11,059 nucleotides of DNA from a virus (taxonomy: Duplodnaviria; Heunggongvirae; Uroviricota; Caudoviricetes), in the IMG/VR virus record IMGVR_UViG_2645727680_000003. One strand, written 5' to 3'. Made by a program: the position numbers and the translations under genes. Under the pieces are notes generated by a model. It was not told the origin of the DNA. It ran no database searches and worked only from the letters and a program-made list of their open reading frames with translations. This document shows positions 2 to 6,683 of this stretch, in pieces. Position 1 is the first letter of the stretch. Each line of letters opens with the position of its first letter.

Positions 2-1495
2 GCTCATCCGGAAGAAATCGACAGCATCGTGGCCATCACCCGCGATATTGCCATTCAGGAAGACCGCCACGAGCTGGGCAATGATATTACTCCGCGCTTT
101 AAGGCGGAGTATGTCGACGGCTCAAAAGGCACACCAACCAGCTATATCGCGACCTACATCGGAAAGAACCTGGACAGCCGCGCCGTGGATGGCATCGACC
201 CGAAAACGGGCAAGCCACGCGTTGACCACGAAACCGGAAAATCAATGGTCGAGAGTGTGGAGCGCGCCATCGGCTGGGCGCGCCTTCATCGGGTCCGCCA
301 GTTCCAGTTCTTTGGCATCCCCTCCCGTCAGGTGTGGCGTGAACTGCGCCGCCTTGCCAGCCAGATGGCACGCAACCCGGAAGGCCCGCAACGACTGAAA
401 GATGACGCAATGGATGCGGTACTCGCTGCCGCCGATGCCGGGTGTTTTGCCACCTACATTGAAAAACAGGGCGGCGTACTTGTTCCACGCAAAGACTACC
501 TGATTCGCACCGCCTACGACCTCGCAGATGAGCTGAATGATTACGGCGAACAGAGCGTACAGATTTACGGGATCTGGTCACCACTCATCGGGGAATCCTC
601 CCGTGTGTGCACGCATCCGGATAACTGGAAACTGGTAAGACGTAAACCGGAAACGGAAGACAGCGCCCGCGAAAATGGTTTTGACCTTCAGGGCGGCCCT
701 GCCGCCCCTTGGACTCGTGGCAATAACTGTCCCCGTGTACAGGAAACGGACAACAACGGGACAGAACAGCCGGAAGAACGGCCAGCACCGTGGCCGCAGC
801 TCCCTGACGGCGTTGAAGTGAACGAATGGATGCGCTCACTGAAACGGCACGAACGCCGGGCGCTGATGCGTTCGCTTCGTGACAAACAGGCAAAAAACAG
901 CAGTGATGAAATGCAGAGCTGGACACAGAGCCGCAAACAGCAGCGGCCTTTGCCTGATAACCACGAATTACTCGCTAAAGAATGGCGGGAATCTGCCGAA
1001 TCTCTCGGCCTGCATATCGGTGAACAGCAGATGCAGCACCTGTTACGGGGCGGCAGCCTGTACGTTGACGGCAGCATCATTGCACCGCAGGGATTTGAAA
1101 TTGTACGCAAACCGGATACCCGCCCGGACAGCCGAATCACGCAGCTCTGGCAGCGCCTGAGCCGTAACCACGGCGTAAGCAGCACGGAGATCCGCCATAA
1201 CCCGGTCGCCAGCTATCTGGAACAGCTGGGGGCATCAGACCCCGAAGCCGCCGCACGCCTGGCATCCACACTTCAGCAAGACCAGAACACCATGAAAACA
1301 CCCGTTACCGTGCTTTCTGACATGCTGCGCGCCATCCGCGACGCAGAGCACGCACAGAGAATCAGTGAAACCACTGAACGCGCCCGCCGCAAAGCAGACC
1401 TGCTGCGGGGTGGCCTGACCAGTGGAAACAAAAAACAGACAGAAACGGGATTCACAAATCCCGTAAATGAGCAAAAAACGCGCCGCGATATATGA
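2..1495 (+). CDS. Replication initiation protein, rolling-circle endonuclease (P2 gpA-like), 5'-partial; C-terminal ~250 aa is a Q/R-rich extension
   Basis: Reading frame is open from base 2 to the TGA at 1493-1495, so the gene starts upstream of the window. Contains SYIATYIGKNLD, a Y-x-x-x-Y-x-x-K motif like the paired catalytic tyrosines of P2 gpA-type initiators. Position directly upstream of the cargo/cos region matches P2 synteny. Family assignment is from recollection, not a search. Confidence 0.6.
   Translation, partial: AHPEEIDSIVAITRDIAIQEDRHELGNDITPRFKAEYVDGSKGTPTSYIATYIGKNLDSRAVDGIDPKTGKPRVDHETGKSMVESVERAIGWARLHRVRQFQFFGIPSRQVWRELRRLASQMARNPEGPQRLKDDAMDAVLAAADAGCFATYIEKQGGVLVPRKDYLIRTAYDLADELNDYGEQSVQIYGIWSPLIGESSRVCTHPDNWKLVRRKPETEDSARENGFDLQGGPAAPWTRGNNCPRVQETDNNGTEQPEERPAPWPQLPDGVEVNEWMRSLKRHERRALMRSLRDKQAKNSSDEMQSWTQSRKQQRPLPDNHELLAKEWRESAESLGLHIGEQQMQHLLRGGSLYVDGSIIAPQGFEIVRKPDTRPDSRITQLWQRLSRNHGVSSTEIRHNPVASYLEQLGASDPEAAARLASTLQQDQNTMKTPVTVLSDMLRAIRDAEHAQRISETTERARRKADLLRGGLTSGNKKQTETGFTNPVNEQKTRRDI
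1445..1464. promoter_or_regulatory. Perfect 8-bp inverted repeat ACGGGATT-N4-AATCCCGT (copy 1), inside the 3' end of the replication gene; candidate ParR operator/centromere half
   Basis: Read directly: ACGGGATT 1445-1452, spacer CACA, AATCCCGT 1457-1464. A second near-identical copy lies 73 bp downstream. Confidence 0.4.
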
Positions 1496-1517
1496 AGCGC
1501 GCATAAAACAGGCAAAA

Positions 1518-1537
1518 ACGGGATTTCAGAATCCCGT
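1518..1537. promoter_or_regulatory. Perfect 8-bp inverted repeat ACGGGATT-N4-AATCCCGT (copy 2), 35 bp upstream of the parM-like start; candidate operator/parC-like site
   Basis: Read directly: ACGGGATT 1518-1525, spacer TCAG, AATCCCGT 1530-1537. Flanks AAACGGGATT / AATCCCGTAAA are shared with copy 1. AT-rich TTAATTAAT follows at 1544-1552, a possible -10 region. Confidence 0.4.
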
Positions 1538-1571
1538 AAACGATTAATTAATCAACATAAGGAAAAGCGAC

Positions 1572-2490
1572 ATGAAAATTTGTATCGATGACGGCTCCAC
1601 CAACATCAAGCTGGCATGGACTGAGAACGGCGAACGCCGCAACGCCATCAGCCCGAACAGCTTCAAGTCGGAATGGTCTGCGCCGTTCGGTGGCACGCAG
1701 CCCGCGAACTACATGCTTGATGGCGTGCGCTATGGTTTTGATCCGGTCAGCGATCGCTTTGTCCAGACGACCGACACGCAATACCAGTACAGCGATGTGA
1801 ATGTCATTGCCATTCATCACGCGCTGGTCAAATCAGGCATCACACCACAGGAAGTGGATGTGGTTGTCACCCTGCCACTGAGCGAATATTTCGACACAAA
1901 CGCACAGCCGGACATGGCCAACATCAACCGCAAAAAAGCAAACGTCATGCGCCCGGTGGCGTACCAGAACGGAAAAGCATTCACTATCCGTAACGTACGG
2001 GTTATGCCTGAATCCATTCCGGCTGGTTTTAAAGCACTGGCTGACATGAGTCCGTTTGAATCCCTGCTGATTGTGGATTTAGGCGGAACCACGCTGGATG
2101 TGGCAAAGGTTCAGGGACAACTGGCAGGTATCAGCCAGGTGTTTTGCGATCCACACGTAGGCGTTTCCCTGATGGCCGATGCCGTACTGTCGGTGATGGC
2201 CACTAACGGTATGCGTACCAGTCACCACATCGCCAATACCATTATCGAACATCGCCATAATGAAGCCTGGCTGCGCCAGCACATCCACAATGACGCGCAT
2301 TACGACAGCCTGATGGCGGTTATTCGTGAAAAGGAAGAAACACTGAAACAACGCGTGATCCGCGCGCTGGCGGGNNNNNNNNNNNNNNNNNNNNNNNNNN
2401 GAAGCCTGCGGAGTTAATGCGACTTTCATCGCGGACGGGGTGCCACAGTTTGCTCTGGTTAATGGGCTGTACGCAATGGACAAGGAGTAA
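1572..2490 (+). CDS. parM: ParM/StbA-like actin-family plasmid segregation ATPase; interrupted by an N-run at 2375-2400
   Basis: N-terminus MKICIDDGSTNIKLAW..ISPNSFK..QYSDVNVIAIHHAL..VMPESIPAG..LLIVDLGGTTLD matches plasmid R1 ParM (MLVFIDDGSTNIKLQW..ISPNSFK..QYSDVNVVAVHHAL..VMPESIPAG..LLIIDLGGTTLD) as I remember it. RBS AAGGA 1559-1563, ATG 1572. After the gap the frame starting at 2401 reads EACGVNATFIADGVPQFALVNGLYAMDKE and stops at TAA 2488-2490, resembling the ParM C-terminus DLVNGMYLIGN. The ORF track's stop at 2417 is an artefact of reading through the Ns. Confidence 0.85.
2375..2400. other. Run of 26 N (assembly gap or masked bases) inside the parM-like gene
   Basis: Read directly from the sequence. 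Confidence 0.97.
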
Positions 2491-2494
2491 ACCA

Positions 2495-2806
2495 ATGACG
2501 ACACCAACCAGACGGATAAGTTTCTATCTGAAGCCCGCCGCCGTCAAGAACGAAGGCGAAGCATGCGCCTGGCTGGACAGCCTTACACCAGAAGCCCGCA
2601 AAAGTGGTCAACGTGTGGCTTTTCTGGCCGGACTGGCACTTATGAAAATTAATCCGGCAGAGGCTTACCGACTGGCTGCATGGGCTGACGATGAAGCGTT
2701 ATCCCTGACACAAACCAGGACAGAACGCCCCGTGTCACAGCCAGCACCAACCGCACAGATAACCAGTCAGATGGCCGGAAATATCCGGGCGTTATTTCCT
2801 GAATAA
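2495..2806 (+). CDS. parR: ParR/StbB-like DNA-binding adaptor (small ribbon-helix-helix-type partition protein)
   Basis: MTTPTRRISFYLKP...LDSLTPEARKSGQRVAFLAGLAL...NIRALFPE parallels R1 ParR (..RRTIAFKLNP...LDSIPQGERSRLNRAALTAGLAL...ILRSLFP) as I remember it. RBS AAGGAG 2482-2487, ATG 2495, overlapping the parM stop, which implies translational coupling. The upstream extension to 2417 in the ORF track has no RBS and overlaps the parM 3' end. Confidence 0.75.
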   Translation: MTTPTRRISFYLKPAAVKNEGEACAWLDSLTPEARKSGQRVAFLAGLALMKINPAEAYRLAAWADDEALSLTQTRTERPVSQPAPTAQITSQMAGNIRALFPE

Positions 2807-2814
2807 CACAACGT

Positions 2815-2832
2815 CAGGGCGGGTTCGCCCTG
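2815..2832. other. Hairpin CAGGGCG-GGTT-CGCCCTG immediately downstream of parR-like; shares the CAGGGCG...CGCCCTGCT arms with the hairpin at 3408-3433
   Basis: Read directly: 7-bp stem, 4-nt loop, no T-run after it. Confidence 0.5.
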
Positions 2833-2869
2833 CTCTCCACCTCAGAACATAAACAAGGAGAACGACATA

Positions 2870-3394
2870 ATGAGCGAAATCAACTATCAGGCATTACGTG
2901 AGGCGGCACAAAACTATCAATCGACGCTGGCGTGGTATGAGGCCACCACGGATAACCCAAATGCTGAGCAGGATTGTAGCGAAGCAGTGGCGGCGTTTAA
3001 GCGTCAAATCCGTCATCAGGAAATGGACATTATCGCCGAGCTGCTGGAAGAGCTGGAAACCAAAGACAACAGGATCGCTGAACTGGAAAAAATCGCCACT
3101 GAGCATGCACTGAAATTCCAGAAAGCACAGGACGCATTAAAGTATGCCGCTTTGCTGCATAGCCGAACGGCGCAACAAACCAATAATTTTGCAGTATTGC
3201 TTCCGGACATAAGCGAATATTTCATTAATAACGTATTTCAGCCCTTGCGATACGAGCGGGATGTTGAAAGAGCCATCATAAAGGCTGGCGGAAAAGCATT
3301 GTGGCAGGAGAAGCACGAGGAAAGAACGCATCAGCTAAGTGATGTAAATAGTGGATGGTTATGCCCACTGACAGAAGGTAAAAAGAACACCTGA
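2870..3394 (+). CDS. Hypothetical 174-aa protein with a central coiled-coil (EELETKDNRIAELEKIATEHALKFQKAQDALKY); N-terminus YQALREAA loosely recalls ead/Ea22-like prophage proteins (tentative)
   Basis: Clean ORF with RBS AAGGAG 2855-2860 and ATG 2870. Heptad-like charged/hydrophobic pattern in the middle. The 3' half is visibly AT-richer than neighbouring genes. No confident family assignment. Confidence 0.6.
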   Translation: MSEINYQALREAAQNYQSTLAWYEATTDNPNAEQDCSEAVAAFKRQIRHQEMDIIAELLEELETKDNRIAELEKIATEHALKFQKAQDALKYAALLHSRTAQQTNNFAVLLPDISEYFINNVFQPLRYERDVERAIIKAGGKALWQEKHEERTHQLSDVNSGWLCPLTEGKKNT

Positions 3395-3407
3395 TTTCCT
3401 CTCAAAC

Positions 3408-3433
3408 CAGGGCGATAATCGCGCATCGCCCTG
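3408..3433. other. Hairpin CAGGGCGAT-N8-ATCGCCCTG, 14 bp downstream of the orf174 stop
   Basis: Read directly: 9-bp perfect stem, 8-nt loop. Same arm motif as the hairpin at 2815-2832. Not followed directly by a T-run. Confidence 0.5.
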
Positions 3434-3434
3434 C

Positions 3435-3461
3435 TGCACAATAGTGCACAAATTTGCACAA
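3435..3461. repeat. Three direct TGCACAA repeats phased at exactly 10 bp, followed by T7 (3462-3468); a fourth TGCACAA at 3527-3533
   Basis: Read directly: TGCACAA at 3435-3441, 3445-3451 and 3455-3461. Helical-turn phasing suggests a protein-binding array. Confidence 0.6.
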
Positions 3462-3504
3462 TTTTTTTGAACGACTTTTTGCCCTTCCGGCCCCCGTGGC
3501 GGCT

Positions 3505-3523
3505 GGATCCGTCAAGGATCCGT
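3505..3523. repeat. Tandem GGATCCGT repeats 11 bp apart, adjacent to the TGCATGCA palindrome
   Basis: Read directly: GGATCCGT at 3505-3512 and 3516-3523. Confidence 0.5.
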
Positions 3524-3834
3524 GCATGCACAAAAAAACGCGCTTTTTCTGCGCGCAGGTGACGGGGGAACAGCCCGCGTTTCAGGGGGTAAATAGCGTT
3601 CCCTTAACAATGTCGCAGCGACACGACAGAATGGCCGTATTTCTCACGCTGAGCGTGAAAAATACGTGAGGGATTCTGATTTGATGGGGTGAAAGGTAAG
3701 GCCGTCAAAATCGCACTGAGGCGGCGAGAACATGCAGTCAACGCGGTGGGATTGCGTAAGAGTCTGACCGTCGATGGTGGCGATAAATTGGAAGGCGTCG
3801 TGAAATTATCTGACTGATACAGGAGCTGGAGAGT

Positions 3835-3859
3835 CGGGGCATAAATTTTTTATGCCCCG
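3835..3859. other. Palindromic hairpin CGGGGCATA-AATTTTT-TATGCCCCG, 27 bp beyond the 3' end of portal gene Q; possible terminator or structural element at the end of the leftward P-Q operon
   Basis: Read directly: 9-bp stem, 7-nt loop. No U-run follows on either strand, so it is not a canonical intrinsic terminator. Confidence 0.3.
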
Positions 3860-3885
3860 GCGAAGCAGCAGACAAGCGAAGCGCG

Positions 3886-4932
3886 TCAGGATGTGGGCTG
3901 GGTGTCTAACAGTGCGTAAGGGTTAAAACGGATAACCTCTTCGCCAAGCCAGTCATTGATGTGCTTCATGGCCTCCATGACTGGCATCAGCTCGTTAATT
4001 GCGTAAACCCGCGCGGCCTTCTCCACATCACCAAACGCACTTTTTTCACCCGGCATCGCCCCCATCAGTTGCGGCGGAACGCGGTGCGCAGCCAGCACAT
4101 CATCACGGGATGCCGCCTTAACATTCATGAATTCATCCTTTGCGGTGATCTGCTGGAACGGCAAAATTTGCACCCCCTCTTTGCCCCCGTTGGGCGCATG
4201 AATGAGCACGTTTTTAAACGCACCACCACCACGTGCCCCCTGTAACGTTTCTTTCAGGGAGTCCATGCTTTCGCGGTTTACCTGCGCTGCACCGATGTAG
4301 ATGATGCACCCGGCGTGGGATCCGTTGTCGTAATACAGTTTTCTGAACATGTCCGCCGAATGAGACAGGCTGGCCGAGAGTAATGCGCCGAGATATTCCG
4401 GCATGCCGTAGATTTCCTGGTTAATATCTGGATTCATCAGGTGGCACACTTTGCCAGGGCGAAACTGAAACGCGTCCTTACCATCCTGCACATACCACCA
4501 TGATTCAAGATCGCTTCCGCGTCGCATGTATTTCGCCAGGGCGTGCCGTAATTTAAGCGGTTCGCCGAGCATATTGCTTCGAAGCTCAAGGAATGCGTTA
4601 CCGAACACAAACCAGTCCAGCGCCAGCGCCGAGAAATCCTGCCGGGAAAGCAGCGGGTGTGGAATATAGCAACCGAGCAATACATTGCGCTTAAAGTAAA
4701 GCGCAGACTGATGCCAGGACGTTTGCCGGGCAGCTCTTGCCAGACCGTACCAGTCCACCGGGGTTTCATACCACCGCCCGTTATCAGCACAGTACATATT
4801 GTCCAGCAGGTCATGCCCGGTCAGGCGATAAGGACCATCAAATGTGAATGCACTGAGCGATGATTCTTTCCTGAGCGCATCAGCGAGATCAATGCGTGAA
4901 CTCATGCGCACTTTTTTATTTTTTCTGCTCAT
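3886..4932 (-). CDS. Q: Portal protein (P2 gpQ-like)
   Basis: 348-aa ORF, similar in size to P2 gpQ and in the expected place: downstream of and coupled to the large terminase gene (ATGA overlap at 4930-4934), adjacent to the predicted cos region. Family assignment by synteny and recollection. Confidence 0.8.
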   Translation of the reverse strand: MSRKNKKVRMSSRIDLADALRKESSLSAFTFDGPYRLTGHDLLDNMYCADNGRWYETPVDWYGLARAARQTSWHQSALYFKRNVLLGCYIPHPLLSRQDFSALALDWFVFGNAFLELRSNMLGEPLKLRHALAKYMRRGSDLESWWYVQDGKDAFQFRPGKVCHLMNPDINQEIYGMPEYLGALLSASLSHSADMFRKLYYDNGSHAGCIIYIGAAQVNRESMDSLKETLQGARGGGAFKNVLIHAPNGGKEGVQILPFQQITAKDEFMNVKAASRDDVLAAHRVPPQLMGAMPGEKSAFGDVEKAARVYAINELMPVMEAMKHINDWLGEEVIRFNPYALLDTQPTS

Positions 4933-6683
4933 CAGAACTCCATAACCGTGAAACGCTCGTTTTCTCCTTCGCCGCCAATTGGTTCGTTAATGACAGCAAG
5001 CATGGTTGCCCACGCAAGGTCGCCGTGGCTGATCCCCCTCGCGCGGTCCGTTTCGTAAGTGATAAAGCCGCCCGGTGTTTTCACCTTACGCACGGCGTTA
5101 AAGGCCGCGACCAGCTCGCGTTCGGCGCGATCGTATTCCCACCGCCCGGCACGCATTATTTGCAGCATTTTCAGTACCAGCGACCGTTTTGATGACAGCG
5201 TGAAGGTGTACGGAATAGCGGCAGGGAAAAACCGTTTCACTATCTGATAAACAGCCTCCCCGTTCCCGCCCGTCACATCAATGCCGATGTGTTCCACGTT
5301 GTAGCGACACGTGAACTCTTCAATGACTCTGGCCTGTTCTTCAAACTCCAGCCCCTGAACGCGTCGCGTCTCCACCGTTCGAAAACGGCCACCAGGAACA
5401 GACGGAGGAACCACCACGGACACAGCGCCGCTGTCGCCGTTGCCACTGCTGCCGTTTGCGTCATACCCAATCCATACCGGACGATTCCCCATCGGGCGGG
5501 GAGCAAAAGGTTTCCAGTCTTTCCAGTCGTCGTATCCGTCAACACCGCAGCCAATCAGGATATTCAGGTTAAATGCCGATTCCCCTTCGCGGACAAACTC
5601 ACACATATAGAGATTGAGGAACTCGTCTTCGGTGTTTTCATCACGAATTTCGTCGATATCGGTGTGTTTCCAGCCGTGATTAACCACATCTTCCAGCGTG
5701 ACAATTTGCCGCCACGTCCGGTCAGGGCAGATAAGCCCGTTATGCAGCGTTTTCCAGTCCACAGAAAAACGCTGGCGTTTATGCGTGGCCTTTTTCTCGT
5801 TCCAGCGGTCGCCGTTCCAGTAGGCGTATGCCTCGTGCGTTTCGGTGGATGGCGTGGAGAAGTAGGTGCGCCGCCGTCCGCTGAGGGTTGCCATAGCGCC
5901 AGCCACCTTGCGCAGTTCAGCAAAGCGACTGACCCAGAAAAATTCATCAAAATAAAAATTGCCCGTATAGGACTGTGCCGACGCAGCAGAAGTGCCGAGA
6001 AAATGCAGCTCTGCGCCGTTGGAGAGGATGATTTTATCGCCCCCTTTCAACTCCACATCAACTTCAGCCGCGGCCTTCTGAATAATGCTTTTAAACTGGA
6101 ACGCCTGACGACGCGACGCAGACAAAAAAATCTGGTTACGCTGGTAAGGTTGCGCCACATCGTCACGCAGCGCCATCAGCAGCGCTTCCTGTGCAAAATA
6201 CCAGGTCGCCCCAATCTGTCGGGATTTCAGGATCATCCTGTTACGTATCCCTGCTTCCCTGCAAAGGGTCAGGGAGTCAAACCAGCCCCGCTGATGCCAC
6301 TCCAGCCTGCTGATGATTTTTTCCCGCAGTGCGGCAATCTGTTCCGGCGTGAAATGATTTTTAAGCTTTTTCGCCCGGCCTTTCTTTCCTGTGGCCGTCG
6401 CATCCGGCTGGCCATCATGCAGTTTTTTAAGCTGCCGGGTCAGCAGGTCTATTTCCTTGAAGTCACCACCTGTTTTATTCTGTTTTTCAGTGAGCTGGAT
6501 GAGGCGCGCATCGATGGACTGCGTGACACGCTGCACGGGTGGCGTTTCATCCCACTGGTCGCGTTTTTTCCACGCATAAATCGTGTTCGGGTTTATTCCC
6601 ATCAGACGTGATATTTCTGCGGGCGGATAACCCTGCCAGTAAAGTTGCCGCGCACGCTGGCGCACAAAAGCGTCCTGAATCAT
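4932..6683 (-). CDS. P: Terminase large (ATPase) subunit (P2 gpP-like)
   Basis: 583-aa ORF, similar in size to P2 gpP. Divergent from the O-N-M-L block, as in P2. RBS GGGGGAG upstream of the ATG at 6683 on the minus strand. Confidence 0.85.
   Translation of the reverse strand: MIQDAFVRQRARQLYWQGYPPAEISRLMGINPNTIYAWKKRDQWDETPPVQRVTQSIDARLIQLTEKQNKTGGDFKEIDLLTRQLKKLHDGQPDATATGKKGRAKKLKNHFTPEQIAALREKIISRLEWHQRGWFDSLTLCREAGIRNRMILKSRQIGATWYFAQEALLMALRDDVAQPYQRNQIFLSASRRQAFQFKSIIQKAAAEVDVELKGGDKIILSNGAELHFLGTSAASAQSYTGNFYFDEFFWVSRFAELRKVAGAMATLSGRRRTYFSTPSTETHEAYAYWNGDRWNEKKATHKRQRFSVDWKTLHNGLICPDRTWRQIVTLEDVVNHGWKHTDIDEIRDENTEDEFLNLYMCEFVREGESAFNLNILIGCGVDGYDDWKDWKPFAPRPMGNRPVWIGYDANGSSGNGDSGAVSVVVPPSVPGGRFRTVETRRVQGLEFEEQARVIEEFTCRYNVEHIGIDVTGGNGEAVYQIVKRFFPAAIPYTFTLSSKRSLVLKMLQIMRAGRWEYDRAERELVAAFNAVRKVKTPGGFITYETDRARGISHGDLAWATMLAVINEPIGGEGENERFTVMEF

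Follow-up and report, generated by a model that had tools for sequence, protein, structure and literature searches.

The stretch of DNA analysed here (IMG/VR record IMGVR_UViG_2645727680_000003; 11,059 nucleotides, referred to as the window) is, judging by its closest matches, a P2-like Escherichia coli prophage of the P88 group (Xuanwuvirus). Among its genes is orf174, found in the interval from replication gene A to portal gene Q, adjoining cos and directly after the segregation genes parM and parR (parMR). The gpA-gpQ interval of P2-like phages is a cos-proximal hotspot, for which Rousset et al. (2022, PMC9122126) give 1,650 arrangements in 18,150 occurrences. One hairpin stands between parR and orf174, and a second one with the same arm motif stands behind orf174. 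The original prediction, made from the letters of the window, had read this layout as an orphan gene that travels as a unit between two hairpins. Comparison with relatives points elsewhere. The gene orf174 is probably an Ead/Ea22-family accessory gene that sits behind parMR in a hypervariable gpA-gpQ slot of a P88-like prophage, and each of the two look-alike hairpins has a history of its own.

The family assignment comes from several sources. The protein matches the Pfam family PF13935 (Ead_Ea22) with 55.5 bits against a gathering cutoff of 27 (E 1.2e-14), and the match covers amino acids (aa) 2-116 of orf174 and positions 1-133 of the 139 in the profile. The RefSeq annotation (Prokaryotic Genome Annotation Pipeline, PGAP) calls it "ead/Ea22-like family protein" in 165 genomes, and three PHROGs of unknown function also match it (E < 1e-13). 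A total of 326 homologs was retrieved; the closest among the matches listed is 97% identical, and nearly all of the 120 homologs listed carry PF13935. NCBIfam holds no family for orf174. The Pfam score and the PGAP name contradict the claim that the protein is an orphan with no confident family. In other words, orf174 is, by sequence, a member of the Ead/Ea22 family of accessory genes that has already been catalogued. Most of the 165 genomes have its open reading frame (ORF) intact and full-length, as do relatives in Salmonella and Escherichia albertii.

In the protein an N-terminal module (aa 1-73) leads into a coiled coil, which is followed by a small C-terminal module (aa ~103-148) and then by a tail that is disordered. 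An AlphaFold2 model built on a 31-sequence alignment, which is to be read at the level of secondary structure only (mean predicted local distance difference test score, pLDDT, 62; predicted template modelling score, pTM, 0.27), places helices at 6-25 and 32-101, the second of them continuous, ahead of a small alpha/beta unit (108-145) and the disordered tail. Structure prediction, which had been proposed as a check, thus agrees with a coiled-coil plan but gives no fold identity, since a Foldseek search of the model against the PDB returned noise only (best E 1.1). BLASTP comparisons present the protein as a mosaic of N-terminal and C-terminal modules. Residues 1-73 are 70-90% identical to Eads bearing other C-termini, and residues 53-174 are 81-92% identical to Eads bearing other N-termini. 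The most conserved stretch of the subfamily is EYFINxVFQPLRYERDVERAIIKAGG, and the core of the C-terminal module is near-invariant over 31 diverse homologs. This module is rare. An exhaustive representative search of 1.84 billion proteins found it in 16 clusters (50% identity), in all of which it sits at the extreme C-terminus of proteins of 68-322 aa, several of them Ead_Ea22. A word-indexed search with the module alone found just three Ead fragments, and Pfam with the module alone returned nothing (best XTBD, E 0.13). A lead to DUF551, which cluster P0132 reaches only at threshold, was too weak and was not used. The tail of orf174 ends in ...TEGKKNT, and the distant homologs P0047 and P0087 end in ...IKGGE or ...IKGE.

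The variability of the slot was examined in 83 loci with both flanks, which were taken from reference phages, from E. coli genomes and, by way of ParR, from 80 IMG/VR contigs. The stretch from the parR stop codon, the left border of the slot, to an invariant TGCACAATAGTGCACAAATTTGCACAA was 535-2,327 nt long, and the slot took at least 28 configurations. Unrelated cargo sits on backbones whose flanks are 97-99.8% identical to the window. For example, one locus (L014) has flanks that are 98.2%, 99.8% and 98.4% identical to the window and a wholly different cargo of 1,777 nt. The closest matches in a phage database were Xuanwuvirus P88, P884B11, 520873, 503458 and Shae_phiSM, and also Chuche; in all of these the flanks match at 92-97% and the middle, i.e. 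the cargo, is absent from the alignment. At least 80% of the segment 2400-3900 is held by 165 of 5,426 complete E. coli genomes, and 1,462 share a flank. The proposal that orf174 is exchangeable cargo in a known cos-proximal hotspot is therefore well supported by the number of configurations and the identity of the flanks.

The cargo itself is diverse. Ead cargo takes the form of a gene encoding 174, 179 or 196 aa, of a tandem pair of Eads, or of a hypothetical gene plus an Ead. P88-type cargo consists of a ClpX-type zinc-finger gene and small genes. Other loci carry a reverse-strand DUF3800 gene that matches the PADLOC candidate PDC-M04A (E 2.6e-35), an AbiLi/AbiLii-like pair (E 2.4e-27 and 7e-5), an RmrA-like protease-helix-turn-helix protein with a partner (E 3e-35), a reverse-strand pair that looks Fic/Doc-like on reading its sequence, or an insertion sequence. 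The loci with defence-type cargo are L068, L022, L011/L003 and L017. The second cargo gene of P88 (2299-2637 of locus L001; also in L047, L055 and L046) encodes a protein of ~104-112 aa that ends in ...IKGE. This is the K/R-G-E end of the Ea22 proteins of lambda and Shiga toxin (Stx) phages, which hints that P88-type cargo, too, is perhaps derived from genes of the lambdoid exo-xis/ea region.

The two hairpins placed on either side of orf174 by the original prediction exist at those positions and have CAGGGCG/CGCCCTG arms in common (Table 1). The pattern CAGGGCG-N3-12-CGCCCTG occurs twice in the window versus 0.01 times expected from 200 shuffles, and only ~11 distinct perfect hairpins with a stem of at least 7 bp are found in 11 kb. 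The shared arm is therefore unlikely to be due to chance. An old duplication may have left the identical arms behind, or GC-rich RNA stems may have converged. Other cargo terminators in the slot also have AGGGCG/CGCCCT stems (P88-type AACGCCCTCTTCCAGGGCGTT). The extra 'CT' of CGCCCTGCT varies among relatives, and most of them have CGCCCTGA. The bare heptamer CAGGGCG is found 12 times in the window, versus 2.4 expected, a number that none of 200 shuffles reached; 8 of the 12 copies lie outside both hairpins, and codon usage is a possible cause.

Table 1. Coordinates of genes and other features of the window discussed in the text
Feature	Position	Strand	Details
gpA C-terminus	29-1495		Pfam
parM, actin-like segregation ATPase	1572 to ~2490	+	Pfam StbA_N 5e-82, ParM_N 2.9e-45
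parR, Plasmid_stab_B	2495-2806	+	103 aa; Pfam PF10784 3.5e-25, phrog_2515 3.2e-57
Left hairpin, CAGGGCG-GGTT-CGCCCTG	2815-2832	+	7-bp stem, dG -13.5 kcal/mol, z -2.35
Shine-Dalgarno sequence, AAGGAG	2855-2860	+	9 nt ahead of ATG
orf174	2870-3394	+	174 aa, Ead/Ea22-like
Right hairpin, CAGGGCGAT-AATCGCGC-ATCGCCCTG	3408-3433	+	9-bp stem, dG -15.6 kcal/mol, z -2.79
Right slot border: three TGCACAA heptamers, 10-bp phasing, with weak hairpin 3444-3459, then T7	3435-3468	+	Invariant
cos region	~450 nt between orf174 and portal Q		
Portal Q	3886-4932	-	Pfam
Terminase	4932-6683	-	Pfam

Do the two hairpins mark the ends of a unit that moves? Their distribution among the 83 loci argues against this. The left hairpin follows the parR stop codon in 60 loci, whatever the cargo. 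It precedes a ClpX-zinc-finger-type gene in ~33 loci, an Ead gene in 17 (two of which have a G.U stem variant that falls outside the strict 60-locus pattern), an unrelated 124-aa ORF in 2, and a reverse-strand gene or no called gene in 8. The comparison thus marks the left hairpin, together with the ribosome-binding site (RBS) region next to it, as a fixture of the parMR backbone and not of the cargo. The right hairpin behaves in a different way. Among the 20 loci that have the Ead C-terminal module at the end of their last + strand gene, 19 carry this hairpin; none of the other 63 does. It also stands behind Ead genes whose C-terminal tails differ (L032), Salmonella has it too, and it occurs without the left hairpin in loci with a hypothetical gene plus Ead and in a P2-like phage of E. 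albertii (L098), which has no parMR either. In phage Chuche a decayed remnant of the right hairpin, with ~24 nt of homology, lies beside DUF3800 cargo. These occurrences identify the right hairpin, at the sequence level, as a fixture of the Ead 3' module. Both hairpins occur together in only 11 of the 83 loci. The two therefore sort independently of one another, which answers the question whether the segment from hairpin to hairpin moves as a unit in the negative.

Further evidence comes from the positions at which homology to relatives ends. In four of the five phages it ends at 2801-2809, at the parR stop codon. The other breakpoints fall at the ATG (2872), within ead (aa 53-73) and at 3434/3435, and none falls at the hairpins. 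No empty slot was present among the 83 loci. A synthetic query representing an empty site with one hairpin was compared with 1,118 E. coli genomes, and the best 25 were all occupied, with matches in two pieces. A search of the ORF list and Pfam found no recombinase gene in or adjoining the slot. With breakpoints elsewhere and no empty site, the hairpins do not qualify as the borders of a cassette.

If the hairpins are not recombination sites, what do they do? The loop of the left hairpin drifts among relatives (CATC, AGTT, GGTT, TATT, TATC, AACT and GAAAC), and pairing in its stem survives: two changes are double and compensatory (CAGGGCA/TGCCCTG and CCAGGGCG/CGCCCTGG), and one variant has a G.U pair. 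The wobble variants (G.U in L013, U.G in CTAGGGCG variants) can pair only as + strand RNA, in line with stem-loops that act at the RNA level, either in protecting 3' ends or in attenuating read-through. Neither hairpin looks like a Rho-independent terminator, in that the + strand stems are followed by CTCTCCACC and CTGCACAAT with no U tract; a terminator was flagged, weakly, only on the - strand of the left hairpin. Because the stems lack U tracts, both stem-loops would act on + strand RNA by protecting 3' ends or by partial termination. Rfam returned no family for either hairpin in a scan of 1400-4000. The same scan gave one sub-threshold gyrA-RNA match at 3827-3880. A palindromic protein operator was considered and rejected, because the arm spacing is 4 nt in one hairpin and 12 nt in the other and the loops drift freely. 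Intercistronic and 3' stem-loops that protect mRNA are known from polycistronic operons, for example the stabilisers of the repetitive extragenic palindrome (REP) type. The hairpins resemble these in being GC-rich, in lacking a U tract, in lying just past stop codons and in combining drifting loops with stems preserved through compensatory and wobble changes. They differ in having no similarity to an Rfam family, and the RNA role assigned to them here is a putative one.

The expression of orf174 appears to depend on its neighbours. The original prediction of a strong RBS holds, but the site is not the gene's own, as the RBS region belongs to the parMR backbone. The Shine-Dalgarno (SD) sequence is strong and conserved. 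It lies in a 63-nt intergenic leader that is common with P88, where a leader of the same length serves a different first gene, and homology to P88 continues through the leader up to the ATG. A simple consensus scan found no sigma-70-like promoter site in 2700-2870, although weak or non-canonical promoters could escape it. Taken together, the missing promoter site, the strong conserved SD and the backbone leader make orf174 most simply the third cistron of parMR transcripts. Under this model orf174 has no promoter of its own and would be translated from read-through transcripts that cross the first stem-loop. In a 121-nt fold, UCUCC just 3' of the left hairpin pairs with the SD GGAGA (2833-2838 with 2856-2860). 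Sequestration of the SD by CUCUCC at 2833-2838 was dropped as a candidate, with a z of -1.56 and a pairing that is not kept in the P88-type leader.

The right border of the slot is a sequence array, TGCACAAtagTGCACAAattTGCACAA, followed by T7 (expected in shuffles 0.00). It is constant in every relative, including P2-like prophages without parMR. The record of phage P884B11 terminates at the equivalent of window position ~3479, the presumed cos end, ~45 nt from the array. Its role is probably to bind protein in the packaging (cos) region, or else to act as a terminator or operator. The stem at 3444-3459 and AATTTTTTTG form a terminator-like element. Final termination of transcripts that run through orf174 would occur here, at the backbone hairpin plus T7 (3444-3468), the likeliest true terminator.

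The AT-rich 3' half of orf174 noted in the original prediction was confirmed. Its G+C (GC) content (3132-3394) is 0.445 versus a window mean of 0.548 (sd 0.039), which makes it the lowest-GC 263-nt stretch of the window (fraction at or below, 0.001), and GC at third codon positions is 0.38 in the 3' half versus 0.56 in the 5' half. Phage morons, as described for HK97 and lambda, are independently acquired genes with their own promoter and terminator and a deviant composition. Like a moron, orf174 is variably present among close relatives, is deviant in composition and has a stem-loop downstream. Unlike a moron, it has no promoter-like site upstream in the consensus scan, and the upstream hairpin and the SD belong to the backbone. 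The stem-loop at 3408-3433 is stable but, lacking a U tract, would be a doubtful candidate for a terminator of its own, and the nearest stem with T7 (3444-3468) is part of the backbone. The description of orf174 as an independently acquired moron or cassette thus stands as far as swapped cargo is concerned, but the reading as a classic moron or as a hairpin-bounded cassette is not supported.

Ea22 of phage lambda has a short N-terminal region, a long central coiled coil and a separate C-terminal domain, and it forms a tetramer (PMC10834534). Deletion of ea22 in lambda or Phi24B lowers host survival and speeds up induction (PMC10834534, PMC7093339). All Ea22 proteins compared from lambda and Stx phages are reported to end in a K/R-G-E tripeptide (PMC7093339). 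The protein encoded by orf174 is like the Ea22 proteins of lambda and the Stx phages Phi24B, 933W and P27 in scoring above the PF13935 threshold, in following the same three-part plan (in a model of low confidence, pLDDT 62) and in its mosaicism, with a conserved coil start and swappable C-termini. It is also, like them, the product of a non-essential accessory gene of a temperate phage. The location differs: orf174 sits by cos behind parMR in a P2-like phage, whereas ea22 lies in the pL-driven exo-xis region.

These comparisons suggest how orf174 might work. By analogy with lambda Ea22, the protein would form a coiled-coil oligomer, and its C-terminal alpha/beta module would be displayed to a host or phage partner. 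It could then serve as a non-enzymatic, oligomeric adaptor that tunes the lysis-lysogeny balance, host survival or physiology. A role in lysis-lysogeny or host survival like that of Ea22 in lambda and Phi24B is suggested weakly, because the C-terminal domain differs (no PDB match) and the K/R-G-E end is absent. The cargo would turn over by homologous recombination in the conserved flanks, namely parR, the 63-nt leader and the TGCACAA array, with further crossovers inside the coiled-coil region and no role for the hairpins as recombination sites.

Several observations weigh against the assignment of orf174 as an Ead/Ea22-family accessory gene acting in this manner. The AlphaFold2 model is of low confidence and has no fold match, and PDB searches with the orf174 sequence and the family profile gave no relevant match. 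No similarity was detectable between the C-terminal module and the C-terminal domain solved for lambda Ea22. The protein ends in ...KKNT and not in K/R-G-E, although this ending is a trait of a subgroup and not part of the Pfam definition. Constraint is only moderate, and some copies carry frameshifts or truncations (strains Q5 and PEC41; nine truncated loci). The promoter scan was a crude sigma-70 consensus and found no promoter for parM either. Finally, the shared arm sequence of the hairpins is statistically unexpected, and the account favoured here leaves it unexplained.

Other explanations have to be weighed against this assignment. One possibility is that orf174 is a single-gene anti-phage, anti-satellite or anti-defence factor, like old and tin in P2. 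The cargo of the P2 hotspot, namely old/tin and the systems of Rousset et al., shares with orf174 the same slot and the same rapid swapping. The slot is a validated defence hotspot (PMC9122126), and in relatives it holds the AbiL-like, RmrA-like and DUF3800/PDC-M04A proteins described above. The rapid shuffling of Ead N- and C-termini resembles arms-race diversification, and the gene is kept intact in 165 genomes. However, the hotspot also hosts non-defence genes such as parMR, and the family is at home in lambdoid phages, in whose early exo-xis/ea regions the sole tested phenotype is pro-lysogenic. No defence phenotype for Ead/Ea22 proteins was found in the literature searched, and orf174 is neither a recognised defence protein nor among the systems tested in PMC9122126, as far as the accessible part of that paper goes. 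The proposal of a defence or anti-defence candidate is therefore favoured only by the hotspot position and not by PADLOC, whose best match (E 0.0022, 15.6 bits) is a nuclease model over the coiled coil and is not significant. We regard a defence role as unlikely. Somewhat less likely again is a broader version of it, in which the Ead/Ea22 proteins that stand last before cos are exclusion or anti-satellite factors whose shuffled modules track invaders, and in which hairpins with CAGGGCG stems take part in a shared post-transcriptional control of cargo.

The remaining explanations are far less probable. That the same-arm stem-loops are recombination borders of a gained and lost unit would accommodate the identical 7-nt arms, the variable presence of the gene and the deviant 3' half, but it is at odds with the separate distributions of the two hairpins, with the right hairpin standing alone in L098 and the hypothetical-gene-plus-Ead loci, with the breakpoints, and with the lack of an empty or hybrid-hairpin site in the 83 loci or the best 25 synthetic-junction matches and of a recombinase gene; we consider it very improbable. 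Slightly lower still, and at an equal level, are two further explanations. In one, orf174 is an accessory of ParMR partition, for example as an adaptor or regulator partnering ParR or ParM, which its place right behind parMR on the same strand and the failure to detect a promoter of its own might suggest. Against this, parMR is found with many other cargos and no Ead, the Ead C-terminal module and its hairpin occur without parMR in L098, and the family is common among lambdoid phages without ParMR. In the other, orf174 is a decaying passenger, one that has occupied the slot since ancestral times, has become near-neutral and is being replaced. The ratio of nonsynonymous to synonymous substitution rates (dN/dS) is 0.46 in comparison with the ortholog of O103:H2 12009, with changes concentrated in the tail, and both this and the damaged copies would agree with decay, as would the Ead 3' end and hairpin remnant that persists under DUF3800 cargo. 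A near-neutral gene is nevertheless hard to reconcile with an ORF kept intact across three genera, with the near-invariant core of the C-terminal module and with the strong, conserved SD.

What does the assignment of orf174 as a swapped Ead/Ea22 gene add? The gene family, the hotspot and this arrangement were already known from public annotation and a published supplementary table. The additions made here are a junction map at base level and the separate histories of the two look-alike hairpins. The finding is an ordinary one, and the locus is unsuited to pursuit as a new type of cassette or as an orphan gene. It does appear that the Ead/Ea22 family, whose only tested phenotype is pro-lysogenic and comes from lambdoid phages, often occupies the P2-like defence hotspot as well. 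Ead in this hotspot is always the last gene before cos, which makes it a cheap candidate for the phage-plating and induction assays used on the hotspot. On the junction map, cargo swapping would proceed through fixed homology arms, i.e. the parR end with the 63-nt leader and hairpin on one side and the TGCACAA array on the other, together with intragenic crossovers.

The genes around the slot are those of a P2-like phage. Pfam bore out parMR upstream of orf174 and the portal gene downstream. A run of 26 N at 2375-2400 lies within parM and breaks its ORF in the mechanical ORF list, and the 3' end of parM was set by homology, as relatives carry a 960-nt parM that stops 4 nt before parR. The same run gives parR a spurious long start of 129 aa; the true parR has 103 aa, as in all relatives. 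A palindrome, AAACGGGATT..AATCCCGTAAA, occurs twice, 73 bp apart, once inside the 3' end of gpA (1445-1464) and once between gpA and parM (1518-1537), and gives the window a further hairpin pair with arms in common. The two copies are candidate ParR-binding (parC-like) sites or terminators. A search of a plasmid collection gave a few prophage-like matches only. A Shigella boydii record annotated as a 'non-mobilizable plasmid' (NZ_CP049283.1, 26,762 bp) matches 76% of the slot segment at 92% identity in its positions 2505-3200. As the phage encodes ParMR, this record may represent a P88-like element in episomal or phage-plasmid form, or it may be an assembly artefact.

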